Origin: a virus
Virus record (IMG/VR): IMGVR_UViG_3300036398_003294
Coordinates: 1-64,000 of that record
Direction: 5' to 3' (one strand)
Length of the DNA stretch: 64,000 nucleotides
Position numbers and translations under genes: made by a program. A model generated the notes under the pieces. It was not told where the DNA came from and made no database searches. It worked only from the letters and a program-made list of their open reading frames with translations. Positions 19,801-41,558 of the stretch are shown one piece after another. Each line of letters opens with the position of its first letter. Positions within the stretch are counted from its first letter, which is position 1.

Positions 19801-20181
19801 TTTAATAAGAACATCTTGAGCAAGTCTTTCGATATAGATGCCTTGAGGTTGAGCAGGTGGTTGGTAGAGGTTAACGATAGGTTGGATAACATTAAGATAA
19901 AAGGTTTCACTAATAGAAAGACTAAGAATGAGATTGTTATTACCATTATAAAGGATAAGACCATCAGGACTAAGAGCAGGATTAGGAAAGGTAAAGTAAT
20001 CACCATCAAAGAAAATATCTGCACCTGTGTAGGTTTGGTTTTCGATAGTGATGGAAAGATTACTAGGATCATCAGTAATGCCTTTAATAAAGATAGCTTT
20101 TTGAGTGGTGGAATAGGTAGCAGGACTATCTAATAAAGAACCACTAGGTGAAATAATTTGGATCATTTTTTTATCTTTCAA
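16897..20181 (-). CDS. Baseplate J-like wedge protein (extended)
   Basis: PGSVTRD, FGIKR...AIGEVVF, GIAGNV...I, GGSEVES..L..R, G.VDVWI, YI..LNLG..L..SDVV. Confidence 0.85.
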   Translation of the reverse strand: MKDKKMIQIISPSGSLLDSPATYSTTQKAIFIKGITDDPSNLSITIENQTYTGADIFFDGDYFTFPNPALSPDGLILYNGNNNLILSLSISETFYLNVIQPIVNLYQPPAQPQGIYIERLAQDVLIKFQHTDNEIKYYNLYASVSSGGGINGYQKINFEPLDPISYGIGKEVLTTIADETFNANTETADPLYAKLNFIQTDGSTNLASDVIFNSEVTESVKRLRLTANLSSIDIQTEIVFKHNRQATQNSTPPTIQIGAFASLSNENVLYYVATAVKVVDGTEIESAYSLEVVGKPVNINQSNVSLPVVSRQTLTTDMITTIHKLQPDALVNPGSVTRDVIIDPFVNEMERARFLLDFTYRAMSFTTLLAIDDPRNTGKSIAVNNSNYKTALGQALFFSEQNRVQAVIDSAFDKLAYNFGIKRRLGTRAIGEVVFFVKTAPTRTINIPAYTTIYAGSIPFQTTQFARISTDTLSSYYDPVKDRYAVYVPVQALNIGIAGNVTSNQIRNSSINGLSVNNENPTFGGSEVESNLDLSSRSINTLASVDTGTKSGIERLASATAGVTEVFIAGAESPYQFRGDGKVDVWIRGVSLATATDLYAPNFQTHKDSLFIPIAEGIYQFKLGDLSATLYKMIDNQTLGYGLKNATTGQWFDLTNHSITDDNIVILDTSLSQPDYNITDVIIGDWQENISEIIYLTRQPVESITSLIDENNVEYAQGTDYLFKKTQDPLLEGYSTKAKDNILINNGVITSDFYSTSEVFSFIGFYPYQLTKKGVDALSIQLRLDSSGDGETGFTFYNSSFEENPDFIIETTDDGYTTLTRTSNSTIPENVAVKVNYSYLLNLEVTYTYNQVLQNVQSQINIAKHLTADILVKECIPCPVDVKANIVVRKGYQVSQIDLAIRNNLQNYISYLNLGSNLRVSDVVRVLDNADGVAFIDLPLTQLSFSVNTPVIREEIIPNNSYTQIVALTTGVAIAWLIDVNLSQPVSTNGGELGRVYGNGLEFNLVSQSLVTTLGNTPNSVCIIGNADLVIGGNPIANSKNKILVALPVGKSPSEYTFHVNYQTADGLGFVNNLSLNPFSYFTVGNLNFTYRAE

Positions 20182-26760: not shown

Positions 26761-29700
26761 ATGGCTATTCAAGGTGGCTATGCACCGCCCGGTGTCTATA
26801 CTCAAACAGTTTTTGATTCACCTTTACCATCTAGCAATTTCACAGGACAAATTCCTTTATTGCTAGGTGCTGGTAAAGAAACCATTCAATCTGTTGGTGT
26901 TCAAATGATTCGTGGATCTTCTTCATCTGTAGATCAACGAATAGTGAATGAAAACATGAGTGGTCGTGCAGTATTAGGATTTAATCCTGATGGCACACCC
27001 ATTCTTGGTGATTTCAATGGAACTGCAACTAAAGTGCAAGTTCAAAAATTTCCTATGGTAGATGGCACAGGTGGTGGTGTTGTTGCTACTGATAGTTCTA
27101 GTGTTACAGCTTATGTCAATGGTCAAGTCACTGTTGTTTTAAGTGTAGATGGTGCTAAAGGCATTGTAGATACTGTTTTGGTTTCTTATTTTTTTAAGAG
27201 AACAGATACCTTAGTTGAAGATGAAAATATTTCATCTCAAATCACTACTACACAAGCTGAAATCATTGGCTCAAATGGTAGCTTTGATTTCGATGCTTTA
27301 AGTAATGTTTTTGTTTTCTTAGTAGATGGTGTTCAATATTCTATTTCTTTGCCAACAGTTTCTACAGGCACAAGAGAAGATGATCTTAATAGAGTAGTTG
27401 CTATTATTAATTCAGGTTCTTATGGATCTTTAGAGGCATCTTCATACACAGATAATTTCAATCAAGAGAACTTACAATTAAATGCTAATGGTTCTATTGT
27501 TATTGGCAATGGTTCAGCTAATGCTAAACTTGGTCTTGTGGTTAATCAATCTACATCAAGAAACAAAACTTTCTTTACAAGTCATTATCCTATCGTTGAT
27601 GGTACTAATGGTGGTATCACTACTACTGATATTACTGATGTTGTAGTTAAACTTAATGGTGCTGTTATTAGTCCAGCTAGTGTAGATGGTTCTAATGGTA
27701 GTATTACTCTTAAAGATGCTCCTGCAACAGATGCTACTTTAACAGTAACCTATTACTTTAATAACTTTAGAGATCAATTTGACTACATCCCAAGCACAGG
27801 TGTTGTTAGTGTTGAATCTATTTCTCTTGTTTCTGATGGATCAGGTGGTGCATCTTCTAATTTTATTGAAGGTGTTTCATGGGTTCTTAAAGATGATAAG
27901 ATTGTTTGGGGTACTTCTGTTCTTGTTGGTGCAGGTGAAACTTCTTTAGGTGCTACTGCATTTAATGACAGCCAAATCACTGCATCTTTAAAAGATGATA
28001 AAGTTTATCTTGTTGAATGTGAAAGAGTGATTGATACAAGTGTAGTACCACCTAGAGCATTGCCAAGTACCTTTAAATTACCTTACCAACCTGTTGATGG
28101 TACAGGCTCAGGTACACCAACATCAAGAGCAGATTTAGTTGAAGTCAAGGTAGGCTATAATTTTACTGATGCGATTGAAAAAGCTAATTCAGTAGTCGTT
28201 CGTGTTAATCCTTCTGATTCTACAATCGTTTTGGCTGAAGAAGTAGAAGAAGGCAAACAAGTATATGCTACTTTCTATTATAACACTTTGACTGATTCTA
28301 CCATTGGTGGAAATAATCAATATCAATTTGTTTGTTTATCTGATGGTGCTAGTGGTTCAGGTAAATATCAAGTCTTAAAGCAAGGTAGTGCTTTGCATGA
28401 TGTTACTTTAGGTACAAAAGGTTCATCTTTAAATGGTGTAGATTTATCTTTCCCAAGTGGCAGTGAATTATTGCCTGATGCTCGTATCACTACAGGCACA
28501 CCTGTAAATGAAACAGTAACAGTAACATTTACATCAAGCAAGCCAGCAAGTGCTTTATTTATTAGTGGTGGTGCTAGTCCATATTTCACCATTAAAGATA
28601 CAAGTGATCAAATCAATTTATCTATTGATGAGGCAGTTGTTACAGGTGGTGTAAGTTTATCTGCTCCAACAGGTACAGGTAGATTTGGTGCGATTGCACA
28701 TATCGTAGGTGATGTATTGCCATATACAGTAGAAAGTGGCTTGCAAGATTTAGGTACAATTAGTGCAGGTAATGACAGTCTTCAATTAAAGCTAGATAAT
28801 GATGATGTAGTCGTCAATATTGGTACTGTTGCAAATTGTACTGCTGATGATATTGCAAATGCTATTAATATTGCTTGTAATAGTGTTTCTGCTAAATACC
28901 AAGCGATGACTACCATGAATGGTGGTGTTGAGATTATTGCAAACAGTCATGATACTTTATCTTTCCAATTTGTAGGTAATACACATGGTACAGTAGGTGA
29001 AATTGCAATCACTTTGACAGATGCTGTTTATTCCACTGCAAATGCTTTGGCAACAGAACTTGAAACACAAATTAATAGTGCATTAGTAGATGCTTTACTT
29101 CAATATGAAGTAAATGGTGTTACTCAAGGTATTATTATTTCTGTTAGTGCAAATTCACAAGGTCGATTAATTTTTAGCTTAGATCAAATTGGTAAGAAAT
29201 TTGAAATCTTAGATGCAGTAGATATCATTCCGGGCGAAGTTTATGTTATTAAAACAGTAGGTGGTACAGACTTTACAGCAGTTGGTAGTGCAGATAATAA
29301 TATAGGTACAACCTTTACTGCTGATGAGTTCGGTATCATTTTAGGTGGTGTAGGTACAGTCGTTCATGCGATTACAGAACTTGTAGAAGAAACAGCAGGT
29401 TCTTTTGTTGTTGGTGAAACATATACAATTACAGTAGCAGGTACAACAGACTTTACTTTGATTGGCGCCGCTAATAACTTAGTAGGTACAACCTTTATTG
29501 CTTTAGGTGCTGGTGCTTTAGGTACAACAGGTAAAGCTGAACGAAATGTAGACCTTGAAGATACTTATGGTTACCTTGAATTTATTAGTCAAGCTGATCC
29601 TGAAGATGATTTTGCTATTATTGCAGGTATTGACACAGATGATGCAGATGGTACACAAACTAAGTTTGGTCTTTTACCTGTTGCTCAAGTTGCATCTACT

Positions 29701-31959
29701 TCTTTAGGTGGTGGTGCATTAAAAGAAAGATTGATCTTAAGAAATCGTTTCTTTCAAGGCAACACTTATTTCTTACCAAGTGGTGAATTAGGTATCCGTG
29801 TAGTAGCAGGTAGCTTATTAACAAAAGCAGGTTTGAAATCAAGTTTTGCATCTGCAATTAAAGGTGCAGTCGTTCAACAACCTACATTAAAGTTATTAAC
29901 AGGTTGGACAGAACAAAAGACTGCTGATAGTCAACCTGCTGTGAAGTTCTATAATGGTACTAACAATTCATATCCTGCCAATAATACTTTATTGTTAGAT
30001 GTGAATGGTACTATTGTTAGTGTAGAATTTACATCTAGTGCCACAGGTACTTTAACTTGTGTAGGTGAAAGCATTGTAGATGGTTTGATTTTGATTTCAA
30101 ATTCTATTGTAGATCAAATCAATAATGCTTTTGCTGATGCAGGTGTAGATGCGATTGTAGAGGCAAGTCAAGAAGGTGCAGGCATTCGTATTGTAGGTGG
30201 TGGATCTTTTGTAAATAGTTATCTTAAAGTTTTAAATGGTAGTGCAAATGAAACTTTAGGTTTAACTGCAAACCAAACTTCTACTTCTACAAATGTAAGT
30301 GCAAGTCAAATTGTAAGTGCATTAATGAGCCATCAATCAAATACTTTAACAGATTTGCTTTTTGGTGAAACTCTTGCAAATGACTACTTTAAATCTAAGG
30401 CTGTTGCTTTTGTACATATTTCAGCTACCAATAAGCAATATTTGGCAATTGAAAGTTTAAGCACAGGTGTTGGATCTATTGTAGATTTCACAGGTGGTAA
30501 TGCAATCACAACCAAAGGCACAGGCTTAAAGATTACTACTACAGATGGTGCAGTTGGTGAAGATGCTAAACAAGGTTTCTATGTAAAATCAAGTATCTCT
30601 AATGGATCAGGTTCAGCAAACACTTCTATTTTTAATAGTGGTGTTGGTCAAGATGGTTTCATTGGTCAAACTTATGTAGATGCAGTAACAGGATTGACAT
30701 TTACCATTTTGCCAAGAGATGGTGGTGTAGATTATCCTCAAGATGCAAATGCTTTCTTTAAATGGAATGTAAGTCAAAACATCACTTGTAATGCAAATAT
30801 TCCTAAGAACTTTGTTAATGGTGTATCTGTAATCGTATCAAATACAACAGGTGTAGCAGTAGGTGATACAGCAAACCTTGAAACATTTGATAAAGGTGGC
30901 AGTGAACCTGATATTGGTCAAGTATATTATATCTCTTATACACAAGAGAAAGTAGACTACACAACAAAGGTCTTTAATAGCATTGCAGATGTAGTCGCTG
31001 AATATGGTGATATATCAACACAAAATCCATTATCTTTAGGTGCATACTTAACGATTTTGAATGGTGCAGGTACAATTGCTTGTAAGCAAATTAAGAGATT
31101 AGCAAATACAGCTGAAATCACAGAAACACAAATGATCGAGGCAATCGATTCAATTGAAGGTGGCATCACAGCAACCTTAACACCATCTGTAATTTTGCCA
31201 TTAATCCCTGCAAGTGAAAGTTTGTTAAGTCATATTAGCAAGCATTGTGATTTACAAAGTTCATTAAGATTTAGATCTGAAAGAACAGCGATTTTAGGTT
31301 TTGCTAGTGGTACTATTCCTAAAGAGGCAGGTCGTTTGGCAAACCTTACAGGATCAAGTCGTGTTCGTGTAGTATATCCTGATATTGCAAGTTTAACTTT
31401 GACAAACACTTTGGGAAATCCTGTTACTTATATTGTAGATGGTCGTTATCTTGCTTGTGCAGTAGCTGGTACAACAACATCTCTTAATATTGATGTTGCT
31501 ACCCCATGGGAATCAAGACAAGTAAATGGTTTCAATGGTGTATTGAGAAACCTTACACCTGTTGAGGCAAATGCTACAGCAGTTAAAGGTGTATCTATCC
31601 TTGAAAATGCAGGCACTACCATTAAGATTAGACATGGTTTAACAACCAATATGTCTTCTGTATTGACTAAGACACCTACAATCATTCAAATTGCAGATCA
31701 AGTTCAAAGAACGATGAGAGGTGTTTTGGATGGATTTATTGGTGTTAAGAATTTACCTGTGATTCAATCACAAGTATTGTTAGCAGTCAATAATGAATTT
31801 CAAAGACTTGTATCTAGTGGCATCATTGAATCATATACAGGTTTAGCAGTCGTTCAAGATCCTGAAGATGCAACAGGGTTATTGATTAATGCTTTCTACA
31901 AGCCTGTATTCCCATTATTGTATATTCAATTTACATTCAATGTTCGCTCTAATGGATAG
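26761..31959 (+). CDS. Tail sheath protein with large insertions (1732 aa)
   Basis: N-terminal PPGVY; C-terminal sheath core (VVAEYG...NPLSLGA..NGA; RHGLTT; YKPVFPLLYIQFTFNV). Confidence 0.9.
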   Translation: MAIQGGYAPPGVYTQTVFDSPLPSSNFTGQIPLLLGAGKETIQSVGVQMIRGSSSSVDQRIVNENMSGRAVLGFNPDGTPILGDFNGTATKVQVQKFPMVDGTGGGVVATDSSSVTAYVNGQVTVVLSVDGAKGIVDTVLVSYFFKRTDTLVEDENISSQITTTQAEIIGSNGSFDFDALSNVFVFLVDGVQYSISLPTVSTGTREDDLNRVVAIINSGSYGSLEASSYTDNFNQENLQLNANGSIVIGNGSANAKLGLVVNQSTSRNKTFFTSHYPIVDGTNGGITTTDITDVVVKLNGAVISPASVDGSNGSITLKDAPATDATLTVTYYFNNFRDQFDYIPSTGVVSVESISLVSDGSGGASSNFIEGVSWVLKDDKIVWGTSVLVGAGETSLGATAFNDSQITASLKDDKVYLVECERVIDTSVVPPRALPSTFKLPYQPVDGTGSGTPTSRADLVEVKVGYNFTDAIEKANSVVVRVNPSDSTIVLAEEVEEGKQVYATFYYNTLTDSTIGGNNQYQFVCLSDGASGSGKYQVLKQGSALHDVTLGTKGSSLNGVDLSFPSGSELLPDARITTGTPVNETVTVTFTSSKPASALFISGGASPYFTIKDTSDQINLSIDEAVVTGGVSLSAPTGTGRFGAIAHIVGDVLPYTVESGLQDLGTISAGNDSLQLKLDNDDVVVNIGTVANCTADDIANAINIACNSVSAKYQAMTTMNGGVEIIANSHDTLSFQFVGNTHGTVGEIAITLTDAVYSTANALATELETQINSALVDALLQYEVNGVTQGIIISVSANSQGRLIFSLDQIGKKFEILDAVDIIPGEVYVIKTVGGTDFTAVGSADNNIGTTFTADEFGIILGGVGTVVHAITELVEETAGSFVVGETYTITVAGTTDFTLIGAANNLVGTTFIALGAGALGTTGKAERNVDLEDTYGYLEFISQADPEDDFAIIAGIDTDDADGTQTKFGLLPVAQVASTSLGGGALKERLILRNRFFQGNTYFLPSGELGIRVVAGSLLTKAGLKSSFASAIKGAVVQQPTLKLLTGWTEQKTADSQPAVKFYNGTNNSYPANNTLLLDVNGTIVSVEFTSSATGTLTCVGESIVDGLILISNSIVDQINNAFADAGVDAIVEASQEGAGIRIVGGGSFVNSYLKVLNGSANETLGLTANQTSTSTNVSASQIVSALMSHQSNTLTDLLFGETLANDYFKSKAVAFVHISATNKQYLAIESLSTGVGSIVDFTGGNAITTKGTGLKITTTDGAVGEDAKQGFYVKSSISNGSGSANTSIFNSGVGQDGFIGQTYVDAVTGLTFTILPRDGGVDYPQDANAFFKWNVSQNITCNANIPKNFVNGVSVIVSNTTGVAVGDTANLETFDKGGSEPDIGQVYYISYTQEKVDYTTKVFNSIADVVAEYGDISTQNPLSLGAYLTILNGAGTIACKQIKRLANTAEITETQMIEAIDSIEGGITATLTPSVILPLIPASESLLSHISKHCDLQSSLRFRSERTAILGFASGTIPKEAGRLANLTGSSRVRVVYPDIASLTLTNTLGNPVTYIVDGRYLACAVAGTTTSLNIDVATPWESRQVNGFNGVLRNLTPVEANATAVKGVSILENAGTTIKIRHGLTTNMSSVLTKTPTIIQIADQVQRTMRGVLDGFIGVKNLPVIQSQVLLAVNNEFQRLVSSGIIESYTGLAVVQDPEDATGLLINAFYKPVFPLLYIQFTFNVRSNG

Positions 31960-31978
31960 TAGAAAAATTTAATAAAAG

Positions 31979-32007
31979 TTGCAATGAAAGCCTTTGTGTA
32001 AGTGTTT
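31979..32007 (+). promoter_or_regulatory. Conserved cassette motif, copy 5
   Basis: TTGCAAT-gaaa-GC-ctttgtg-TAAGTGTTT. Confidence 0.8.
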
Positions 32008-32039
32008 TATATATGTAAAGAAAAACACTTACACAAAGG
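31991..32039. repeat. Perfect 18-bp inverted repeat overlapping motif copy 5 and the next RBS
   Basis: CCTTTGTGTAAGTGTTTT (31991-32008) / AAAACACTTACACAAAGG (32022-32039), 13-nt loop. Confidence 0.9.
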
Positions 32040-32048
32040 AAAAACAAA

Positions 32049-32399
32049 ATGGAAAACTTAGATCAAGTTATTCAAAATCTTAATGACAAAAATTGGAATG
32101 AAGAAGAATGTTGCATTGATGGTGCAGAAGTTCTTTGCAATATGTTAAATAGTTTTGATGATCTTCAAGTAAAATTTAAACTCAAAGCAAAGAGTTTTAC
32201 TAGAGAAGAAAATAGAATTTATTTTGGTAGAAACTTGAAATTTCAAATTGTCATCCTTGAAGACAAAATGGCATATGTTGCAAGAAATGATGGTTGGTTT
32301 GGACATGATTCTGAATCAGGACATCCATACTCATGGCATAAACTAGTGACTAAACCTGAATGGTTGAAGAAAGTGATTTTACATTATATCAATCAATAA
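32049..32399 (+). CDS. Small hypothetical protein (motif-headed cassette)
   Basis: 116 aa, RBS AAGGA. Confidence 0.75.
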   Translation: MENLDQVIQNLNDKNWNEEECCIDGAEVLCNMLNSFDDLQVKFKLKAKSFTREENRIYFGRNLKFQIVILEDKMAYVARNDGWFGHDSESGHPYSWHKLVTKPEWLKKVILHYINQ

Positions 32400-32449
32400 T
32401 TATTTAATTGACTGATCCTTTGTATATCTCAACATAAAGGATCATTTAA

Positions 32450-33184
32450 ATGAAGTATTCATATATTAGTAAATATGCTAGTCCAACTTCGATTGTGAAA
32501 TTAGCTTTTGGCAATCTCTTTAATTTAATTCCTATCGATAAAGAAAAGATTGTAGCAGATGCTTTGATAACAGCTTTAGCAGATGCCATTTTGAATTTAA
32601 AAGTGTATGCTACTAAATCACTCACACCATTAGAAAAGATTTTAGGTGAAGCGATTTTGACTAAACCAAGTTTTGCAAATTCTAAAGAAATCAAAGTGGA
32701 TGATGTAATTGTAGGATTTAGAATGTTCTTTCAAGGTAATATCTTACATACCGACATGGCTAAAAAGTTATTAAAGGCAGTCAAGAATTATGGCAACCAA
32801 ACGGATCTTTTAAATGCTATTAAATCTGACTTGTCTACTGATGCTGGTAAAACACAATTGATGAAAGAAATTCAAAGTCAAATTAAAGGCTTTGAAGATG
32901 GTGAAGAGGATGACAGTTGGGATGATAGTGAGGAAGGATTTTTTGAAGATGAACAAATCGAAGATTTTATTGATAAGGTATTTCAAGAAAATATTAATTT
33001 GGCAAAAGAGAATGTTGGACAAATTCCGGGCATTGGTGTGATTGTGATTGACGAACAAAATCTAGCTGAAACAGAATTAGAAAAGATTGTGATGTCTTTT
33101 GAAGTGAATCGCTTAAATGTAGGCATTGAGATGAGTTGCGAATATAAAATCAAAGCACATAGATATATTGACGAAGAAATGTAG
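32450..33184 (+). CDS. Acidic hypothetical protein
   Basis: 244 aa, RBS AAGGA inside a hairpin; D/E-rich centre. Confidence 0.7.
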   Translation: MKYSYISKYASPTSIVKLAFGNLFNLIPIDKEKIVADALITALADAILNLKVYATKSLTPLEKILGEAILTKPSFANSKEIKVDDVIVGFRMFFQGNILHTDMAKKLLKAVKNYGNQTDLLNAIKSDLSTDAGKTQLMKEIQSQIKGFEDGEEDDSWDDSEEGFFEDEQIEDFIDKVFQENINLAKENVGQIPGIGVIVIDEQNLAETELEKIVMSFEVNRLNVGIEMSCEYKIKAHRYIDEEM

Positions 33185-33230
33185 CAAAATAATATAATAT
33201 GATTGAACTCTTTTTATTAAAAGGACAATC

Positions 33231-35831
33231 ATGTTTTCAGATTTCTTTGAATCACTACAAAGACCAGATGTTAAACCTAAAAAATGGATGAGAGAAGTAG
33301 ATCTCATTTTAGGTACAAAAGATAATATTAAACAAGCTATTGATGAGTGTTTAGCATCTAGTCATTATGGCATAGACTTAGAAACAACAGGTTTAGATAA
33401 TCGTGTTTTTCATGGTAGAACAAGAGCATCTATTGTAGGTATTTCTATTGCACCTAATGAAAAGAAAGCATATTATTTTCCTATTAGACATAGTGCAGGT
33501 ACAGAACATAATGTTTCATGGTCAATTATAGATAGAGAATTTAGTCGCTTGCTCAGTGTAAATGCTACAGCTATTCCTGTGTTTCATAATGGTGCTTTCG
33601 ATCAAGAGTTTTTAGAATATAATGGAGAAACTCTTTTAGGTAAAGAACGATTTGAAAATCCAAAGTTATGGGAAGATAACTATATTATGGCTTGTCTTAT
33701 GAATAGTCGTGATAAAGGTGGTCGTGGTCTTAAAGATATGTCTAAAGATAAATTAGGTTGGGAAATGATCGAACTTGATGAACTCATTCCTAAATCTAAA
33801 ATTAAAGATTATTCTACTCTTGATCCATCTTGGGAAGCCTGTGTTTGGTATGCAGGTGCAGATGCTTTATGTACTCTTAAACTCTATAATATCTTAAAAG
33901 ACTTGTTTCCTAAAGAAATGATTAGTCTTTATATGATCGAAAAGAAATGCAATACTTCAGTTAGGTGGATGCACAGAAACAGAGTTTATATTGATCAAAA
34001 GAAAACACAAGAGTTTATTAAGATTGGTCAAAAGGAATGGATGGATAGTCTTATTGAAGTGTATGAAGGTGCAAAGGAATTACTTGGTAGAGATGTCATG
34101 CCTGCATACATTAAAATTATGAAAGGTGATCTAAAAGGTGTCAATAAGTTTAACACGGATAATACAGACAGCTTTAAAGATTGCATAGACGAGGCAAGAA
34201 AAGAAGCTGATCGTATGTATCCACATTTAGATATGGCAGGTGAAGATTTTGTAGCTAGAAAAATGGTAGCATCTTTGACTAATCCAAAACAAAAAGAAGA
34301 AGTAGTCTTTGAATATAAATATGATATTTTATCATCTCAACAATTAGGCATGATGTTTAGAGAATTAGAAGTACCTAATTTACAAACTACAGCAAGTGGA
34401 CAAGTCGCAACAGGTGCAGATGTTTTAGATGAAGTGATTGAAGAGGCATCGGATACTTTTCCATTTGTAAGAAAGATTAAAAGATTAAGAGAACTAGCTA
34501 AAGCACTTGGTCAATATCTTATACCTATGAAAGAGGATGTTGCAGATGATGGTACATTAAAACCAAAATTTAATCAGTTTGGAGCAGATACAGGTCGTTT
34601 TAGTTGTGGTACAACAAGTAAGCCATGGGAGACAAAAGATGGTGGTTGTAGAGTACCTTTTCAAGGCATACCATCAGGATATGATCCAAAAAGACCAATG
34701 ATTACTTCAAGGTTAAGAGAATGTATAGCAGTAAGAAATCCTGATCATTATTTAGTGGCAATTGACTATGCAGGTGTTGAATTAAGAATTGTAACAAATA
34801 TTAGTCAAGAGCCTTTATGGATTGAAGAATTTTTTAGATGTTCATCATGCAATCGTAAATACACTAAAGAAAGAGGTGAAGATGGATTTCCTATCGTACC
34901 ACCAGCTATTTGTATTTGTGGATCAGATAAGATAGGTGATTTGCATACATTGACAGCAGTTGCTTTTTATGGCGAAGAGGCAAAGAAAAGACCTGATTGG
35001 AAAGCATTAAGAGGCAATGCAAAAGGTGTAAACTTTGCATTATGTTATGGTGGTACAGGTAAAGCAGTGGTTAGAACGATTAACTGTACACAAGAAGAAG
35101 GTGATGAGAAATACCAAACCTTTACAAAGACATATAAAGGTTTAACAAAGTGGTGGAAAAAGGAAGTGGATTTTGCCAAAGAGAATGGATATGTATTAAC
35201 AGCATTTGGTCGAAGAATGTTGATGCCTGATATTAAATCTAAAGAGTTTTCTTTGAGATCAAAGGATGAACGAAAGGCAGTAAATTCACCTGTGCAAGGT
35301 ACAAGTGCAGATATTACTAAGATTGCAATGAGTTTAATTTATGAGAATGTTAAAAAGAGAAATTGGTTTGACAAGCTAATGATGATTTTAACAGTGCATG
35401 ATGAAATTGTATTTGAAATCCATAAAGATATCATAGGCGAGGCAATACCATTGTTATGTGATATTATGGTAAGGAATAAAGCATTGCAAAATAAGAATTG
35501 GATTGTGCCTTTAACAGTGGATGTAGAAATAGGTAAAGATTGGTCTGTGCCTTATGATTTGAAAGAGTTAAGAGAAGGCAAAGGAGAAGATGAATTTTTA
35601 GTGAATGCTTTTAAAGTGGATCATAGTGGACAGCCAAAGCCAAAGGTATTAAATGAAACTACCTTAAGCACAGAGCAAGAAGAAAAAACAAAGCATTATG
35701 AGATTTACGAATTGAATGAGTTATCGTATAGTGAGGCAGATCGATTATCTGAATGGATTAAGTTAAATACAGGTAAAGACATTAAGATTATGTATCAAGG
35801 TAGAGATGTATCTATCTTATTAAAGGATTAA
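33231..35831 (+). CDS. polA: Family A DNA polymerase with 3'-5' exonuclease, no 5'-3' exonuclease
   Basis: ExoI DLETTG, ExoII HNGAFD, ExoIII YAGAD; TGRFS; motif A DYAGVELR; motif B RGNAKGVNFALCYG; NSPVQGTSAD; motif C VHDE. Confidence 0.95.
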   Translation: MFSDFFESLQRPDVKPKKWMREVDLILGTKDNIKQAIDECLASSHYGIDLETTGLDNRVFHGRTRASIVGISIAPNEKKAYYFPIRHSAGTEHNVSWSIIDREFSRLLSVNATAIPVFHNGAFDQEFLEYNGETLLGKERFENPKLWEDNYIMACLMNSRDKGGRGLKDMSKDKLGWEMIELDELIPKSKIKDYSTLDPSWEACVWYAGADALCTLKLYNILKDLFPKEMISLYMIEKKCNTSVRWMHRNRVYIDQKKTQEFIKIGQKEWMDSLIEVYEGAKELLGRDVMPAYIKIMKGDLKGVNKFNTDNTDSFKDCIDEARKEADRMYPHLDMAGEDFVARKMVASLTNPKQKEEVVFEYKYDILSSQQLGMMFRELEVPNLQTTASGQVATGADVLDEVIEEASDTFPFVRKIKRLRELAKALGQYLIPMKEDVADDGTLKPKFNQFGADTGRFSCGTTSKPWETKDGGCRVPFQGIPSGYDPKRPMITSRLRECIAVRNPDHYLVAIDYAGVELRIVTNISQEPLWIEEFFRCSSCNRKYTKERGEDGFPIVPPAICICGSDKIGDLHTLTAVAFYGEEAKKRPDWKALRGNAKGVNFALCYGGTGKAVVRTINCTQEEGDEKYQTFTKTYKGLTKWWKKEVDFAKENGYVLTAFGRRMLMPDIKSKEFSLRSKDERKAVNSPVQGTSADITKIAMSLIYENVKKRNWFDKLMMILTVHDEIVFEIHKDIIGEAIPLLCDIMVRNKALQNKNWIVPLTVDVEIGKDWSVPYDLKELREGKGEDEFLVNAFKVDHSGQPKPKVLNETTLSTEQEEKTKHYEIYELNELSYSEADRLSEWIKLNTGKDIKIMYQGRDVSILLKD

Positions 35832-35838
35832 ATTAAAA

Positions 35839-36063
35839 ATGATCTGTTGGTTTGAAAATCATAGCAATACCATACAATACAATCCCACTCATGTATTTTT
35901 GTCGTCTTCAATATCTAATAACAAGCATGGTTTTCCTATATTAAATAAAGAGAGTTTTAGAAATTCAGTATCTCTTTTTTTAAGTAGGTCAAATACAAAT
36001 AGCAATTGGATAATCCAGCCTAATGTGTACTTAAAACCAAGTAAAGGAAATAAGTTAAAATGA
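35839..36063 (+). CDS. Array member 1, methyltransferase TRD-like module
   Basis: MICWFENHSN...SFRNSVSLFLSR...NWI...YLKP. Confidence 0.85.
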   Translation: MICWFENHSNTIQYNPTHVFLSSSISNNKHGFPILNKESFRNSVSLFLSRSNTNSNWIIQPNVYLKPSKGNKLK

Positions 36064-36287
36064 TTTTTAGTTTTGAGATGTCGGCAAATGAAGTGAAAAG
36101 AAATACAAGATTTGTGTTAATCACATCAAGTTCTTTTGGTAATACAGGAGTTCCTATTCAAGAAAACAATTTTAGAGATGCCTTAGCTTTCTATATTGTT
36201 AGGACAGGTGGTCTTATGGATTCAAGAAAATATGAGAATTGGCATCGTGCTAATGATATGTATTTTAAACCTAATGGGGATAAATAA
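36060..36287 (+). CDS. Array member 2 (divergent)
   Basis: MIFSFE...NNFRDALAFYIVR...NW...DMYFKP; ATGA overlap. Confidence 0.85.
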   Translation: MIFSFEMSANEVKRNTRFVLITSSSFGNTGVPIQENNFRDALAFYIVRTGGLMDSRKYENWHRANDMYFKPNGDK

Positions 36288-36290
36288 AAA

Positions 36291-36518
36291 ATGATCTGTT
36301 GGTTTGAAAATTCAAATAATGACATCACTTCTATTGATTCTCATGTTTTCTTTTTATCTTGTGTATCAAGTAGGCATTCAGGATATTATATAGATGAGAA
36401 AAACTTTAGGCAGAATATATCTATATATATAGCAAGAGGAAGGGATGTTATAAATAGAACATGGGTGAATAATTGTGATCGGTATTATGCACCACATCTT
36501 AATAAGGAGGGTAAGTAA
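36291..36518 (+). CDS. Array member 3
   Basis: MICWFENSNN...NFRQNISIYIAR...TW...DRYYAP. Confidence 0.85.
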   Translation: MICWFENSNNDITSIDSHVFFLSCVSSRHSGYYIDEKNFRQNISIYIARGRDVINRTWVNNCDRYYAPHLNKEGK

Positions 36519-36520
36519 AA

Positions 36521-36739
36521 ATGATCTGTTGGTTTCACTCACATGGCAATTTAGTTCGATATAATAAAGAGATCGTGTTTCTGATAAACAATTATCAAGG
36601 AGCAGGTTTCCATATACATAAGGGAGATTCATTTAGAAGATCAATCGCTTTATTTAACACAAGAGCCTTAGTACAGCCTAACGGAAAAAATTGGTATATG
36701 GATTGTGATGTTCATTTAGCACCAAATGGAGATAAGTAA
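36521..36739 (+). CDS. Array member 4
   Basis: MICWFHSHGN...SFRRSIALFNTR...NW...DVHLAP. Confidence 0.85.
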   Translation: MICWFHSHGNLVRYNKEIVFLINNYQGAGFHIHKGDSFRRSIALFNTRALVQPNGKNWYMDCDVHLAPNGDK

Positions 36740-36741
36740 AA

Positions 36742-36966
36742 ATGATATGTTGGTTTGAAAATGATAGTAATAATGTAATGTCAAATACAAATTTTGTATT
36801 TCTAATGAGTTCGATCTCAAGTCGTCATTCAGGTATGTATTTACAAGAAGAAAATTTTAGATTAGGAATAGCTTTATACATAGCTAGAGATAGAAAACTC
36901 ATTAAACCAAATTGGAAGTATGATATTGATCCGTATTTTAAGCCAAATGGAGATAAGTTAAAATGA
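36742..36966 (+). CDS. Array member 5
   Basis: MICWFENDSN...NFRLGIALYIAR...NW...DPYFKP. Confidence 0.85.
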   Translation: MICWFENDSNNVMSNTNFVFLMSSISSRHSGMYLQEENFRLGIALYIARDRKLIKPNWKYDIDPYFKPNGDKLK

Positions 36967-37181
36967 TTTGTTGGTTTGAGAATGATAGTAATGATGTTCG
37001 CTCAATAGATAACTATGTTTTTCTATTAGGTTCTATATCTAGTCGTAAAACAGGATTCCATTTACACAACCAAAATTTTCGTTTAGGTATGGCATTATAC
37101 CTAGCAAGAGGAAGGGATGTTATAAATAAGACATGGATAAATCAATCTGATGCCTATTTAGCACCAAAGGATAAAAAATGA
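36963..37181 (+). CDS. Array member 6
   Basis: MICWFENDSN...NFRLGMALYLAR...TWINQSDAYLAP. Confidence 0.85.
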   Translation: MICWFENDSNDVRSIDNYVFLLGSISSRKTGFHLHNQNFRLGMALYLARGRDVINKTWINQSDAYLAPKDKK

Positions 37182-37402
37182 TTTGTTGGTTTGTCAATAA
37201 AGGTAATGCACCTGAAGCTAATGAACATAATGTTTTTTTATTGTCTAGTGTATCGCCCAAAAGAGTAGGTGAGATGGTAGATGAAAGAAACTTTAGAAGG
37301 TTTGTAGCTTTATCTACAGCAAAGGGTAGAGAAGTCGTAGGTCGAGGTGAGTGGATTTTAAACCATAATTTATATTTAGCACCTAAGAAAGGATTAAGAT
37401 AA
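37178..37402 (+). CDS. Array member 7
   Basis: MICWFVNKGN...NFRRFVALSTAK...EWI...LYLAP. Confidence 0.85.
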   Translation: MICWFVNKGNAPEANEHNVFLLSSVSPKRVGEMVDERNFRRFVALSTAKGREVVGRGEWILNHNLYLAPKKGLR

Positions 37403-37403
37403 A

Positions 37404-37622
37404 ATGCTATATTGGTTTCATCATGGTGGAAATAGATTTCAATATAATGAAAAGCTATGTCACTATATCAACAATTATGAGGGAGCTGGTCTTGTGATCA
37501 CAAAAGAAAACTTCAGAAGATGTATGGCATTGTCGATTGCAAGAGCAAGAGAAATCGTAGGCAGGAATAATTGGATAGTGGACTCTGATTTATATATTTC
37601 ACCAAAGGATAAGATAAAATGA
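37404..37622 (+). CDS. Array member 8
   Basis: MLYWFHHGGN...NFRRCMALSIAR...NWIVDSDLYISP. Confidence 0.85.
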   Translation: MLYWFHHGGNRFQYNEKLCHYINNYEGAGLVITKENFRRCMALSIARAREIVGRNNWIVDSDLYISPKDKIK

Positions 37623-37849
37623 TCTGTTGGTTTGAGAATGTAGGCAGTTGCACTACAACAAATAGAGTAGTTTGTTATATGGTATCTTATCCGTCACCTA
37701 GTGGAAATGGTATTTGTATCTATGCAGGCTCAAACTTTAGAGAATTTATTTCTTTTTCTGTTTGTAAAAGTGATTATCTCATTCCACAATCAAATTGGCT
37801 TACACATAGTAATAGATACCTAGCACCTAAGAAAGATAAGTTAAAATGA
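37619..37849 (+). CDS. Array member 9
   Basis: MICWFENVGS...NFREFISFSVCK...NWL...RYLAP. Confidence 0.85.
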   Translation: MICWFENVGSCTTTNRVVCYMVSYPSPSGNGICIYAGSNFREFISFSVCKSDYLIPQSNWLTHSNRYLAPKKDKLK

Positions 37850-38058
37850 TCTGTTGGCTTAATAATAATAGTAATGATGTTTTTCAGAATACAATGACTG
37901 TGTTTTTAATATCCTCATTTGCAAGTAAGGCACATGGACTTTATGTACATAAAGAAAATTTTAGAAATTCGATATCTCTTTTTTTAAGTAGATCTAATAC
38001 AAATAGCAATTGGATAAATCAATCAGATGCCTATCTAGCACCTAAGAAAGATAAATAA
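37846..38058 (+). CDS. Array member 10
   Basis: MICWLNNNSN...NFRNSISLFLSR...NWINQSDAYLAP. Confidence 0.85.
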   Translation: MICWLNNNSNDVFQNTMTVFLISSFASKAHGLYVHKENFRNSISLFLSRSNTNSNWINQSDAYLAPKKDK

Positions 38059-38060
38059 AA

Positions 38061-38276
38061 ATGATCTGTTGGTTTGAAAACCTAAACAACACTGTGCAAA
38101 CGATTCAATTTCAAGTTTATTTTATGTCTTCTAAATCATCACAAGCACATGGATATTATTTGGATGAAAAAAGTTTTAGACAAAATATATCTATCTATAT
38201 AGCAAGAGGAAGAGATGTTATATTTACTACATGGATAAACCAATCAGATGTGTATTTAGCACCTAAGAAAGGATAA
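38061..38276 (+). CDS. Array member 11
   Basis: MICWFENLNN...SFRQNISIYIAR...TWINQSDVYLAP. Confidence 0.85.
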   Translation: MICWFENLNNTVQTIQFQVYFMSSKSSQAHGYYLDEKSFRQNISIYIARGRDVIFTTWINQSDVYLAPKKG

Positions 38277-38283
38277 AGTTAAA

Positions 38284-38787
38284 ATGAAAGATTTATTATT
38301 TGAATGCAATGATCAAGGCATGACAGAAAAAGAATTTACTGAAATGTTTTGTAAGGTATGCAAAAATAGAAAATGTGCAAGAGCAAGTTGGGCATTTTCT
38401 TCATGGGATGAAAGAATTAATACTCAATATGATAGATTTTTTCATACACCTACTATAAAGCAATCTGAAGCCTCTCAATATAAAGGCATCAGTGATTTTG
38501 AAGAATACCATATCAATCCTGTAGTCGATATATGGACACCTGCAAGTTTAGATTTTAGTAAATCACAACCTAAACATTATAAGATAGAACAAGATATTTC
38601 TCAATCATCCATTGAGAAACCTATCTTATCACAGCATGATGAAATAAACACACCTGTGCAAAACCTATATTTTATAGGTGACAGTAAACAACAAGTACAA
38701 CCACAACAACAAACCATTCAACAAGACGAATGGTCTTTGCCACCTAAAACTTTAAAAGTTGGTGGCAAGTTTCAAATGGGAAAATAA
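38284..38787 (+). CDS. Hypothetical protein with N-terminal Cys cluster
   Basis: EC...FCKVCKNRKC; RBS AAGGA; same operon as polA and the array. Confidence 0.75.
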   Translation: MKDLLFECNDQGMTEKEFTEMFCKVCKNRKCARASWAFSSWDERINTQYDRFFHTPTIKQSEASQYKGISDFEEYHINPVVDIWTPASLDFSKSQPKHYKIEQDISQSSIEKPILSQHDEINTPVQNLYFIGDSKQQVQPQQQTIQQDEWSLPPKTLKVGGKFQMGK

Positions 38788-38789
38788 AA

Positions 38790-39002
38790 ATGTTAAACTC
38801 AACAATCATTCAAGCTATTAATGATGGCTATCAAGTCGTTTTACCAGCTACAGTAAAAAGAGATTTAAAGATCGAGTTAAAGTATTATAACTTGGTTATC
38901 TGTACAAAAGAAGAAGTGAAAAACAAAGAAAAGTTAATTTTCTTGAAATGGGAAGATGCTAATGAACTTGAAAGATTATCTTGGAAACAATTTTTACTTT
39001 AA
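38790..39002 (+). CDS. Hypothetical protein
   Basis: 70 aa, tightly packed in operon. Confidence 0.6.
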   Translation: MLNSTIIQAINDGYQVVLPATVKRDLKIELKYYNLVICTKEEVKNKEKLIFLKWEDANELERLSWKQFLL

Positions 39003-39330
39003 GCGATGGATTGATCCTGTGTTGGTCTTGCCACCTGATCTCATACCTAAAGTAAATAAGAAACAAAAAAGAGCAATGAAAGAGGCAGAGGCATGGGTCT
39101 TAAAATATGGCAGTACAATTTTATATCTTAAAGGACTAATCCGAAAAGATGAATTTGTATATATGGAAGAAAATCATGTTTTTGTGAACACGATTATTAA
39201 ACCTACAATGCAAGAATTGATAGACATAGCTAAGATCTGTGGTGAAGAACAATTTCAGACAGTGATAAAAATGACATCACATAAAAAAATTGTTGAGTAC
39301 CTGCGACAATATTATTGTATAATTAAATAA
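38956..39330 (+). CDS. Hypothetical protein
   Basis: 124 aa; start may be a few codons downstream. Confidence 0.6.
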   Translation: MLMNLKDYLGNNFYFKRWIDPVLVLPPDLIPKVNKKQKRAMKEAEAWVLKYGSTILYLKGLIRKDEFVYMEENHVFVNTIIKPTMQELIDIAKICGEEQFQTVIKMTSHKKIVEYLRQYYCIIK

Positions 39331-39354
39331 ACTCAAACCAAAGGATATGTTCAA

Positions 39355-39618
39355 ATGACAGTATCAGAAAAATTAGCACAAGCGATTGCACAATTACAAG
39401 CAGTAGTTTCCGATGTTGAATCTGCTGAAAAAGGTAAGCTCAAACCAAGTGTACGAGCAAGAAAAGAACTTTTAACAGTTTCTAAATCTTTAAATGGTTT
39501 AAGAAAAGAATTGTTGGAAGTAGCTAAAGCAGAAAAAGAAAAGAGAAAAGCTGAAAAGGAAGCCAATCCTAAAAAGAAATATGCAACAGGCTTTGCGATT
39601 AAGAAAGCTAAAGCCTAA
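39355..39618 (+). CDS. Histone H1-like (Hc1 family) DNA-binding protein
   Basis: D.E.AEKG....VRARKELL.V.K.L..LRK core plus Lys/Ala-rich tail. Confidence 0.7.
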   Translation: MTVSEKLAQAIAQLQAVVSDVESAEKGKLKPSVRARKELLTVSKSLNGLRKELLEVAKAEKEKRKAEKEANPKKKYATGFAIKKAKA

Positions 39619-39667
39619 TCATTAAATATCTTTATCTTAAGTATCTCTTAAGATAAGGATATACATA

Positions 39668-39892
39668 ATGTTAATAGTATGGATAGCTTTATGCACTCTC
39701 CCTATGTATGTAGGGATTACTCTTAAAGTAAGCATCATACTATTAGACAGCGAGTTGGCAATACAGGATAAGGTAGTTTGGTATGTAAAAATATTAGGCT
39801 ACCTTTTTTTATTTTGGTATGTAGAGATACTAGATTATATGATTGATAAAGATTTATGGACGATCAAATGGTATTTAAAATTTAAGACTTAG
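39668..39892 (+). CDS. Small membrane protein
   Basis: 74 aa, two hydrophobic stretches, RBS AAGGA inside a hairpin. Confidence 0.55.
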   Translation: MLIVWIALCTLPMYVGITLKVSIILLDSELAIQDKVVWYVKILGYLFLFWYVEILDYMIDKDLWTIKWYLKFKT

Positions 39893-40886
39893 GACTATAG
39901 AACATATAACTAGCAACATCCATAATATTTTGATGTGCATGAGCAAGTTTACTTTCAACCCAATCTTCTAAAGGTGTATCATGCTTAATAATATCTGCAA
40001 GAGAAGAAAGTTGAGTAAGCATTTGATTGATGTTAGAAACAGACATATAAGAACCATCAGAATCAGCTTGAAGATCCATAATAGCATTAGCTTTTTTACC
40101 TAGCTTTCTAGCTTCTTTTCTTTTAGTCTTAGCAGTCGTTTTAAGATCTTTAACAGCTTTCTTAACAAGTTCTTCTGCACTCTTAATAATATCAAAAGAC
40201 GAAGCTAGTTTGTCATGCAAATCAGCTGGAATAACATTAGATTTTTTAAGGTATGGTAGATCTTGTTTAGACCATGCAGTTTTATATTCTTTAGCTTTTT
40301 CATCAGCTTTATCTGCTTCAGCTAAAAGTTCATTCATTTCGGATTCAATAGATGCGATTAACATTCTAGCAGTTCTATTAAGAAACTTATTTTGACCAGC
40401 TTGTTTATTAATAAACTTATTAGCTACTCTTGATGCAAGTTTAACATTAAGTTCTTTTTCACAAGACTCTTGAGATTTAGGTGCTTGACCTGTAATTGTA
40501 CCACCATACATACAGGTATTTACTTTCCATTCATCTTCAAAGTCTTGTTCTTTAATCCATTTTTGCCATTCTTTCTTACCTTTGGGTCCTTCATGAAATC
40601 TTGATTCTCTTTGAAGATCTGCTTTCTTAAATTGATCTTTATATTTCTCAGTGTTTTCTTCCCATTCATCTTGAAAATCTTTAGGTTGGTCTTCAAACCA
40701 TTCTTTAAATTCTTTCTTACCTTTGGGGCCTTCATGAAATCTTGATTCTTTATCAAAATCAGCAAACATATCATTTGCCTCAATGCTACCATAATCTCTT
40801 CTCATCATTAGAGGTTGAGATAAGCCTTGATCAGTATCACTACAGCCACAGGCTGTAAAACGATTAAATTTATTTCTTCTTAACAT
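39882..40886 (-). CDS. Hypothetical, probable head-associated protein
   Basis: Two ESRFHEGPKGKKE..W repeats; C-terminal DGSYMS...LEDWVESKLAHA...V..YM motif recalled from large-phage head-region proteins. Confidence 0.65.
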   Translation of the reverse strand: MLRRNKFNRFTACGCSDTDQGLSQPLMMRRDYGSIEANDMFADFDKESRFHEGPKGKKEFKEWFEDQPKDFQDEWEENTEKYKDQFKKADLQRESRFHEGPKGKKEWQKWIKEQDFEDEWKVNTCMYGGTITGQAPKSQESCEKELNVKLASRVANKFINKQAGQNKFLNRTARMLIASIESEMNELLAEADKADEKAKEYKTAWSKQDLPYLKKSNVIPADLHDKLASSFDIIKSAEELVKKAVKDLKTTAKTKRKEARKLGKKANAIMDLQADSDGSYMSVSNINQMLTQLSSLADIIKHDTPLEDWVESKLAHAHQNIMDVASYMFYSPKS

Positions 40887-40890
40887 TTTA

Positions 40891-41451
40891 TTAAAATCCT
40901 TTTCTTTTTCTTAGAGATGCCATCACTTGACGACCTTCTGTGTTAATTTCACGATCTACCATAAGAGCAGGTCTACGAACCATGTAGTTGGGCCATTTTT
41001 CTGACCACTTGGAATAAAAGGTACTTGAATCCACAATGCGAACAGTTTGATCAGGATCAGGGATATTTGGATCAGCTACATAAACATCCATATTACCATC
41101 AGGTTTTTCAACTACATCAAAGACTAAACTAGCATGACTCCATTCTCTACCTTCAGGATTCCAAGAGATAAGAACAGGTTTACCTAGATCAGTCCAGCCT
41201 TTAACTTGCTTTAATGTGGAAGGTACAACTAAAGTGCCTCTACATCCATAATGTTGAAGGCAAGCTAAAACTTCTTCCCATCTAGCACCTTGCATAGGTT
41301 TAGCACCAATTACTTTTTGAACTTCATCTTCTGATGTATCAAAACCTAAAGCATTTAATGCCATAGCTGTAGATGCAGATACACAAGAGTATTGTGTTCT
41401 TTGCCTTACAGGATTGACATTAGCTTTGGCAATACGATTATTAAAAAACAT
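40891..41451 (-). CDS. C39-like cysteine peptidase
   Basis: QRTQYSCVSAS..MAL (oxyanion Gln and catalytic Cys), WSHASLV (His), VADPN (Asp); likely start ATG 41451 after AAAGG. Confidence 0.8.
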   Translation of the reverse strand: MFFNNRIAKANVNPVRQRTQYSCVSASTAMALNALGFDTSEDEVQKVIGAKPMQGARWEEVLACLQHYGCRGTLVVPSTLKQVKGWTDLGKPVLISWNPEGREWSHASLVFDVVEKPDGNMDVYVADPNIPDPDQTVRIVDSSTFYSKWSEKWPNYMVRRPALMVDREINTEGRQVMASLRKRKGF

Positions 41452-41529
41452 AGGAATAGAACCTTTCATCTTTATATGTATGCAAGATAGATTGAATATA
41501 AAAAGAATATGAAAAAAAGTTTTAAAAAG

Positions 41530-41558
41530 TTGCAATAGATGCTTATCCATAAGTGTTT
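41530..41558 (+). promoter_or_regulatory. Conserved cassette motif, copy 6
   Basis: TTGCAAT-agat-GC-ttatcca-TAAGTGTTT. Confidence 0.8.

Follow-up and report, generated by a model that had tools for sequence, protein, structure and literature searches.

Arrays of small phage genes behind a DNA polymerase and a methyltransferase: putative trans-acting modules of a split N6-adenine methyltransferase

Background

Why should a phage carry eleven small, related genes directly behind the gene for its DNA polymerase? The question was raised by the first 64,000 nucleotides (nt) of the 72.4-kb IMG/VR virus record IMGVR_UViG_3300036398_003294 (the window), in which eleven paralogous open reading frames (ORFs) of 70-76 amino acids (aa) follow the family A DNA polymerase gene polA on the + strand, between positions 35839 and 38276. 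The GC content of the window was about 32%, and CheckV rated the record as 23% complete, so the record is a piece of a jumbo phage of roughly 300 kb. An initial annotation had likened these ORFs to a segment found after the catalytic domain in some N6-adenine methyltransferases (MTases), and had proposed that they serve as interchangeable specificity subunits of a split methylase. This proposal was borne out wherever sequence comparison could bear on it. From homology, synteny and patterns of divergence we consider it quite likely that the ORFs, called modules in the following, encode trans-acting subunits of a split MTase. The stricter reading, that they are interchangeable recognition modules acting in trans, is the one that we favour, with moderate confidence.

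An intact array of eleven ORFs downstream of polA

The first ATG of the array (35839) follows the polA stop codon (35831) by 7 nt, in agreement with the initial annotation. The ORF listing contained all eleven copies intact and on the same strand. Neighbouring copies overlap as ATGA at five junctions (1/2, 5/6, 6/7, 8/9 and 9/10) and are separated by 1-3 nt at the remaining five, as had also been described. When a profile built from the eleven copies was run over the whole 72.4-kb record, exactly 11 matches were obtained (E-values from 3.7e-35 to 4.4e-27), none of them outside the array and none containing an internal stop codon. A 33-nt repeat was found at the junctions, with 11 occurrences spaced 215-231 nt apart. 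Contigs from other lake-water sequencing runs matched positions 35792-37444 and 37561-38787 with 0 differences; the array is not an assembly artefact.

Each ORF had been credited with a ribosome-binding site (RBS) of its own. Purine runs of the GGA/GGAG type were indeed present 6-13 nt ahead of the ATG in nine of the eleven modules, whereas only AAGAAAGA precedes the ATG of modules 10 and 11, so that for these last two copies the claim is weaker. In an alignment of the eleven copies over their whole length, six columns were invariant (M1, G31, F40, R41, W57 and P67) and five nearly so (I2, W4, F5, N10 and Y64), with a mean column identity of 50%. As judged by entropy, the variable columns fall in clusters while the scaffold residues are kept, which agrees with the earlier description. 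The isoelectric points (pI) of the modules ranged from 7.7 to 10.0 and were at least 8.8 in 10 of 11; lysine plus arginine equalled or exceeded aspartate plus glutamate in all 11.

The module is part of an unannotated methyltransferase family

A search of 1.84 billion protein representatives with the 11-copy profile returned 275 matches at E<=1e-3, including 66 at E<=1e-10. By length, the best 150 of the 275 comprised 80 proteins of at most 100 aa, 8 of 116-183 aa and 62 of at least 255 aa. The motif NPP[YF] was present in 40 of these 62 long proteins, and where a protein has a single module this typically lies about 190-200 aa after the motif (from 384 to 579 in P0107, 109 to 305 in P0114, 140 to 332 in P0081 and 724 to 918 in P0071). 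Nineteen of the 22 long proteins without NPP[YF] are 255-398 aa in length and start shortly ahead of the module; the other three are a 532-aa protein with a divergent N-terminus and two very long proteins with partial matches. The form with the module in cis, that is within the enzyme polypeptide, is about 535 or 815 aa long. Twelve aligned members of about 535 aa (alignment A2) have the order motif X (FYTP), motif I (D..xGTG), motif IV (NPPY), module and a conserved C-terminal region of about 170 aa, and the order X, I, IV is that of the gamma type. The full-length profile A2 in turn matched all 11 window ORFs at its positions ~316-387. The homology proposed in the initial annotation therefore holds, since the profile matches lie in the segment after the catalytic domain, and the consensus of the ~535-aa members reads nearly as it was given there.

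In profile searches of the PDB, the catalytic part matched HsdM (3ufb, 1.4e-4) and M.BseCI (7qw5, 6e-3). Pfam N6_Mtase was passed by only one of 10 long members tested, and three of 48 members reached weak Pfam N6_Mtase or Eco57I scores; for P0001 these were 3.7e-8 and 2.6e-6, respectively. The approximately 290 aa past the catalytic domain, module included, match no known domain, and for the family there is no Pfam, NCBIfam or PADLOC model. Its proteins are named 'hypothetical protein' in their sources, and the protein-atlas clusters of the family are mostly viral. The label 'type IIG-like' used in the initial annotation was not supported in that no nuclease domain was detected. A protein-atlas search with the module itself gave scores below 0.9, which is a lead only, and among deposited phage genomes there was no match to polA plus array (blastn) or to the module or the module-less MTase described below (tblastn). 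NCBIfam matches of the long relatives were all at chance level, and one of them, to a toxin-subunit model (24 bits against a cut-off of 457), was disregarded. On the strength of these profiles and motifs, the module is a domain of about 70 aa of an un-annotated, largely phage-borne family of putative gamma-type N6-adenine MTases, for which adenine-N6 activity is predicted from the motifs.

Closely related phages encode the methyltransferase without the module

Five related phage records were searched with the full-length MTase profile (G003, 316 kb, is rated 100% complete by CheckV). The PolA of the window is 98% identical in amino acid sequence to that of G002, which is of the same phage type as G001, and 91% identical to that of G003. 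The gene order around polA is the same in these relatives, with 7 modules in G002 and 2 in G003 at the place where the window has 11. Both G001 and G003 encode one MTase of the module-bearing family. These enzymes (519-520 aa; L031:5852-7411, - strand, in G001) show the same catalytic motifs in gamma order and match profile positions 5-311 and 370-551, skipping the module. In the alignment the flanking conserved blocks are intact, but where the module would stand (~75 residues) there is an unrelated linker of ~42 residues. Directly 3' of the module-less MTase, on the same strand, lie 7 (G003) or 8 (G001) free modules, whose stop and start codons often overlap. Over the whole genomes, 19 module matches in three arrays were counted in G001 and 13 in three arrays in G003. 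An MTase lacking exactly this segment, as the initial annotation had envisaged for the partner, is thus found in the closest relatives, with arrays of free modules adjoining it.

Translation of the MTase-linked array is probably coupled to that of the catalytic core. For the array of the window, the 7-nt spacer behind polA and the result of a consensus terminator scan of 31900-40000, which gave no + strand terminator-like site between 35831 and 39699, suggest that it is, rather tentatively, probably co-transcribed with polA. What is conserved of a possible coupling between methylation and replication is the adjacency of an array to polA. The subtype 'MICWFE...YLAPK', which occurs beside polA, is also present inside MTase-linked arrays. 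Proteins of 382-399 aa stand beside the module arrays in G001 (L031:2019-3218, + strand) and G003 (L030:171-1319, + strand); repeated helix-turn-helix-like units were noticed in them by eye.

The module occurs either in cis or in trans

Among 119 listed homologues of the G001 MTase, 107 had one module and 12 had none. The 12 are exactly those with 67-91% identity to the G001 enzyme, forming one tight clade in which the linker is conserved. We also examined viral genomes from the other side: 12 large records, 131-673 kb in length and five of them at least 90% complete, that encode a cis-type MTase. In all 12 there was a single module match, located inside the MTase ORF (303-925 aa), and no free copy. 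In this sample, therefore, a module within the enzyme and modules as separate genes are mutually exclusive.

A metagenome scan yielded 319 free modules in 62 loci, the longest run having 21. Ten of these loci also encode an MTase of the module-less type and two encode polA, and no ORF longer than 110 aa in the 62 loci carried a module. Behind all seven full-length module-less MTases of these loci, the first module, in the same orientation, began at -3 to +35 nt from the end of the MTase gene. At 50% identity the free modules as a family fall into more than 80 clusters.

The cis-type MTase of several jumbo phages is itself divided just past the catalytic domain. In G010 (321 kb, with terminal repeats) it is encoded by two overlapping ORFs, L074:2938-4455 (505 aa; N-terminal extension and catalytic domain) and 4406-5392 (328 aa; pre-module segment, module and C-terminal region), and frames of 303-337 aa were found in five of the 12 records. 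These overlaps may mark a frameshift site or a pair of genuine subunits; the division explains the class of profile matches of about 310 aa.

Modules are under purifying selection and diverge rapidly between close relatives

For five of the + strand modules of the window an orthologous cassette was found in another phage, which allowed the ratio of nonsynonymous to synonymous substitution (dN/dS) to be determined. Module 2, a 'MIFSFEMS' variant (36060-36287; 75 aa; profile E 4.4e-27), corresponds to L013:8447-8674 with 89% aa identity and a dN/dS of 0.14; module 3 (36291-36518; 75 aa; E 1.1e-34) to L013:8680-8907 (85%, 0.11); module 4 (36521-36739; 72 aa; E 6.1e-30) to L013:8224-8445 (83%, 0.08); module 8, a 'MLYWFHHGG' variant (37404-37622; 72 aa; E 1.0e-30), to L013:9142-9360 (94%, 0.06); and module 9 (37619-37849; 76 aa; E 1.2e-31) to L017:8224-8445 of G003 (74%, 0.10). 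The dN/dS values of the five pairs, 0.06-0.14 compared with 0.04-0.24 for neighbouring genes, show that the cassettes are real, translated genes under purifying selection. The nearest relative of module 7 (37178-37402; 74 aa; E 4.5e-32) was L031:3998-4222 in the MTase-linked array of G001, with 55% aa identity. Module 6 (36963-37181; 72 aa; E 3.7e-35) is nearest to the family consensus, and module 1 (35839-36063; 74 aa; E 3.1e-30) resembles module 10 (37846-38058; 70 aa; E 1.5e-32) in its C-terminal half, where the nt identity is 0.77 as against 0.61 for the N-terminal part. The remaining copies are module 5 (36742-36966; 74 aa; E 4.0e-35) and module 11 (38061-38276; 71 aa; E 3.6e-34). Paralogues within the array of the window had mean nt identities of 0.53-0.56 and a maximum of 0.77, and are old. 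Even where PolA is 98% identical, two phages can differ in the make-up of their arrays: 11 cassettes stand against 7, with only four orthologues in common and in a different order.

The rate of change was then compared within the enzyme, using pairwise identities of module and flanks in 138 single-module cis enzymes. For pairs with a flank identity of 0.6-0.7, identity was 0.45 in the module, 0.58 in the upstream flank and 0.72 in the downstream flank; at a flank identity of 0.7-0.8 the values were 0.56, 0.65 and 0.82, respectively. In 374 of the 755 pairs with flank identities of at least 0.6, the module was lower by at least 0.2. Among close cis relatives, no other segment diverges as fast as the module. 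In distant pairs its identity levelled off near 0.37, a sign of a conserved scaffold, and such a scaffold together with fast-changing loops is what would be expected of a specificity element.

The module also occurs several times over within cis enzymes, in 5, 4, 3 or 2 copies with spacers as short as 3-6 aa (the multi-module proteins are P0001, P0002, P0004, P0016, P0031, P0054 and P0061). In a tree the copies group by protein, which indicates independent duplications in at least seven proteins. P0001 (5 modules), P0004 (4), P0002 (3) and P0016 (2) are single-polypeptide MTases from metagenomes. P0001 has a larger repeat unit of about 111 aa and ends right after the fifth copy, so the end of its contig may cut it.

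Exchange between cassettes was looked for with a maximum chi-square test. Of 55 copy pairs, 12 gave p<=0.002, with breakpoints in the identical first 15-31 or last ~21 nt. Because these are the nucleotide-identical ends of the cassettes, the signal reflects conserved ends and not internal mosaics. Contigs of other runs showed joints at cassette borders (37175->37609 with 429 other letters between, 37173->38052, 36319->38044 and 37639->37592), whose sides extend over only 21-33 nt, so they are at most a weak hint of cassette turnover. A chimeric cassette of 98 aa was noticed in G003 (L030:2545-2841, - strand) and also as P0012. It combines the N-terminal half of one type with the C-terminal part of the 'MIFSFEMS' type, has the NFR segment duplicated and looks like the product of an unequal crossover between cassettes.

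The window encodes two enzymes of another family

Two adjacent Type IIG/ISP-like enzymes with NPPY motifs are encoded at 45647-48640 and 48662-50686 (+ strand; 997 and 674 aa). Each of them combines N6_Mtase with a complete Type_ISP_C domain (2e-52 and 2e-55). In PADLOC both matched REase_MTase_IIG PDLC03610 best (8e-168 and 3e-91), and the ORF at 45647-48640 covers positions 1-502 of this model; the two genes could represent a restriction-modification enzyme pair carried by the phage, or else an orphan MTase that was duplicated. Their catalytic domains are related to those of the module-bearing family (hhalign probability 95-96%). As partners of the modules these enzymes were rejected: they have a Type_ISP_C domain of their own that shows no likeness to the module, and the initial annotation had likewise seen no clear alignment to them. 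No PC motif of C5-cytosine MTases was present in window ORFs of 100 aa or more.

Other genes in the window

PolA (33231-35831, + strand, 866 aa) is a family A DNA polymerase with a 3'-5' exonuclease (Pfam DNA_pol_A 6.4e-70, DNA_pol_A_exo1 6.6e-10). On its other side the array is bounded by a conserved gene at 38284-38787 (+ strand) for a protein of 167 aa without a Pfam match, 85% identical in amino acid sequence to its copy in G002; the arrays in L013 and L017 are likewise followed by syntenic ORFs of 161 and 164 aa, the counterparts of this gene. A lysine-rich protein of 87 aa is encoded at 39355-39618 (+ strand), about 1 kb downstream of the array, in a position that is kept in L013 and L017; its match to Hc1 (histone H1-like) is weak (7.9e-5, just under the Pfam cut-off).

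Several further ORFs were noted. The last ~90 residues of an unusually large protein of 1732 aa (26761-31959, + strand), syntenic in the relatives, match the C-terminal domain of phage tail sheath proteins (2.1e-5), and a Baseplate_J protein is encoded at 16897-20181. The window starts within a gene for an NAD-dependent DNA ligase, of which the C-terminal part with OB, HhH and BRCT domains is present (3-911, + strand), beside a 283-aa protein with an SspB-like domain (966-1817, + strand; 3.7e-6). A protein of 219 aa at 40891-41550 (- strand) has a C39-like peptidase domain (3.7e-8). Two giant ORFs, 52652-61213 (+ strand, 2853 aa) and 2649-7841 (- strand, 1730 aa), had no Pfam match at 1e-3.

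Function of the modules

Under the reading that we favour, the ancestral enzyme would have carried the module in cis, flanked by the catalytic domain and the conserved C-terminal region. In one clade of jumbo phages the core has lost it, with the linker of ~42 aa in its place, and a family of separately translated modules would supply it from arrays: one directly behind the MTase, one behind polA as in the window, and in some genomes one more elsewhere. Each module would dock non-covalently on the single catalytic core, in the vacated position, with its variable polar loops facing the DNA and setting the sequence to be methylated. One enzyme would in this way acquire many specificities, and adenine methylation at multiple sites could shield replicating phage DNA from diverse host restriction. 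A bolder version of this reading, possible in our view rather than probable, treats the arrays as a 'specificity library' in which a core without a recognition module uses from 13 to more than 20 mini-modules of ~70 aa, each with its own target; one library would be translationally linked to the MTase, and a second, co-transcribed with the polymerase gene, would serve to mark nascent DNA at many motifs.

Several points weigh against modules that read DNA sequence. Classical target-recognition domains (TRDs) measure about 150-200 aa, and a module of 70 aa is far smaller. Recognition may rest mainly with the conserved C-terminal region of ~170 aa, and the module may do no more than modulate it. 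Over the whole cis family the module did not exceed the remainder of the protein in column entropy, and since the linker of the 12 module-less homologues is conserved, the core might work without any module. Matches to PHROGs, PADLOC and Pfam (E<=10, run for all modules except module 11) were at chance level, neither sequence nor profile searches of the PDB returned anything for the module, P0107 or P0114, and a permissive Pfam scan of 48 family members revealed no recurrent TRD family. An 84-member module profile compared by hhalign with the Type_ISP_C enzyme of the window gave a probability of 0.3%. The location of the genes also has to be considered. The polA-linked array of G001 is about 41 kb away from its MTase, and the 72.4-kb contig of the window contains no MTase of the module-bearing family. 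By synteny this contig ends at about 37 kb of G001, whose MTase lies at 24.9-26.4 kb, so the locus of the partner is expected about 11 kb past the contig end, consistent with the initial view that it would probably lie elsewhere; on this synteny we assume that the phage of the window, too, encodes a module-less MTase just off the contig.

The alternative that fares best is that the modules are trans-acting subunits which complete the fold or activate catalysis and do not set DNA specificity. Their diversity would then represent timing isoforms (early or tied to the replisome as opposed to late), an escape from host binders or inhibitors, or a means of directing the enzyme to substrates or to the replisome. 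The split of the enzyme and the cis-or-trans complementarity fit this explanation equally well, and the occurrence of arrays in different transcriptional contexts (polA, MTase, elsewhere) agrees with it, as do the family-wide variability of the module, no greater than that of the remaining protein, and its lack of resemblance to any known TRD. One copy should, however, be enough to complete a fold, yet 11-21 diverged paralogues are kept under purifying selection; the module has been multiplied repeatedly and independently in cis enzymes; and the fastest divergence among close relatives is typical of surfaces involved in specificity or an arms race. We therefore regard a role without specificity as unlikely, though worth keeping in mind.

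Less probable still is exaptation of the modules to a role apart from the MTase; they might, for instance, be small regulators that bind DNA, or nucleoid proteins, expressed along with the replication genes. The array of the window does adjoin polA and not an MTase, its products are basic, and the gene for the Hc1-like protein is only 1 kb downstream. Such a role would leave unexplained the exact loss of the domain from the MTase of this lineage and the arrays placed directly behind that MTase, and the subfamily found beside polA recurs in MTase-linked arrays.

The initial annotation had itself named two alternatives, decoys and donor cassettes, which are disfavoured by the purifying selection, the individual start and stop codons, the basic pI and the complementary distribution. 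Decoys or dominant-negative inhibitors that poison enzymes of the host or of competitors, or mimics of a substrate surface, would suit small, numerous and diversified phage proteins with a rapid turnover of array content. The family that they would target is, however, itself mostly viral and absent from the PADLOC defence models, and free modules were found only where the phage's own MTase lacks one, in translational linkage with that MTase; being basic, they also differ from acidic DNA mimics. We hold this to be very improbable. Silent donor cassettes, to be moved by gene conversion or recombination into an expressed MTase locus in the manner of a shufflon or of antigenic variation, can practically be dismissed: near-identical nucleotide ends (the 33-nt junction repeat), the chimeric cassette of G003 and the weak contig joints at cassette borders are what they have in their favour, but each cassette starts and stops with codons of its own, most of them with an RBS-like run ahead, the dN/dS values show that the cassettes are translated, the MTase holds no resident module to be replaced, and the ORF lists, whose ORFs were not scanned for families, show no recombinase next to the arrays.

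Comparison with known systems

If trans-acting recognition modules are what the arrays encode, a phage would have a new way to survive many host restriction systems at once, with one enzyme and a set of evolvable, shuffleable and tiny trans subunits, and a large un-annotated family of small phage ORFs would find its explanation. It would be the first multispecific MTase acting in trans, with a sequence-reading cassette smaller than any other autonomous one known for an MTase, and the modules could provide a compact plug-in for reprogramming an adenine methylase. Should specificity not be their role, there would still be a cleanly split enzyme with a strict cis-or-trans distribution of one domain, a natural case of domain excision and subunit multiplication. 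In either case a whole MTase family has been missed by current databases, and free modules are widespread in freshwater phage metagenomes. Free-standing MTase modules in arrays were not described in the literature covered by full-text searches, whose scope excluded supplements and subscription journals.

The Type IIG/ISP enzymes of the window resemble the module-bearing family only in the catalytic domain, since Type_ISP_C is unlike the module. With gamma enzymes such as M.TaqI, M.BseCI and Eco57I-like proteins the family shares the motif order X, I, IV and a (here putative) recognition region C-terminal to the catalytic domain. Unlike the DNA mimics Ocr and ArdA, the modules are not strongly acidic.

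In Type I restriction-modification systems, alternative S genes give alternative specificities. The arrangement described here is like that of HsdS in that a separate, here putative, specificity protein goes with a gamma-type N6-adenine catalytic subunit, and the core is distantly similar to HsdM. HsdS, however, contains two TRDs and coiled-coil spacers in a protein of about 400 aa, whereas the modules have 70-76 aa and, in the ten scanned against Pfam, no match including the HsdS (Methylase_S) family. The modules also appear to be expressed in parallel, unlike multi-hsdS loci that are switched by inversion. No HsdR partner was seen, in ORF data that were not searched specifically for one.

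Active MTases made of two polypeptides from adjacent or overlapping genes are known in M.AquI and M.EcoHK31I (PMC3404938). These differ in being C5 enzymes with a single small subunit, a single specificity and no arrays of alternative subunits. The closest functional analogue is found in the multispecific C5 MTases of temperate Bacillus phages (SPR, phi3T and rho11s; PMC12707154, citing Trautner et al. 1996), which evade many restriction systems by joining to one core several short, tandem and interchangeable TRDs within one polypeptide. The cis relatives with 2-5 tandem modules mirror this layout. The Bacillus phage enzymes are C5-cytosine MTases with their TRDs in cis, whereas the core described here is of the N6-adenine (NPPY) type and the modules of the window are separate 70-aa ORFs with stop codons, belonging to a family that forms arrays of up to 21 at several loci. 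The idea of the multispecific MTase would thereby extend from C5 enzymes in cis to N6-adenine enzymes in trans, and the architecture is a new version of the principle of one catalytic core with many recognition parts.

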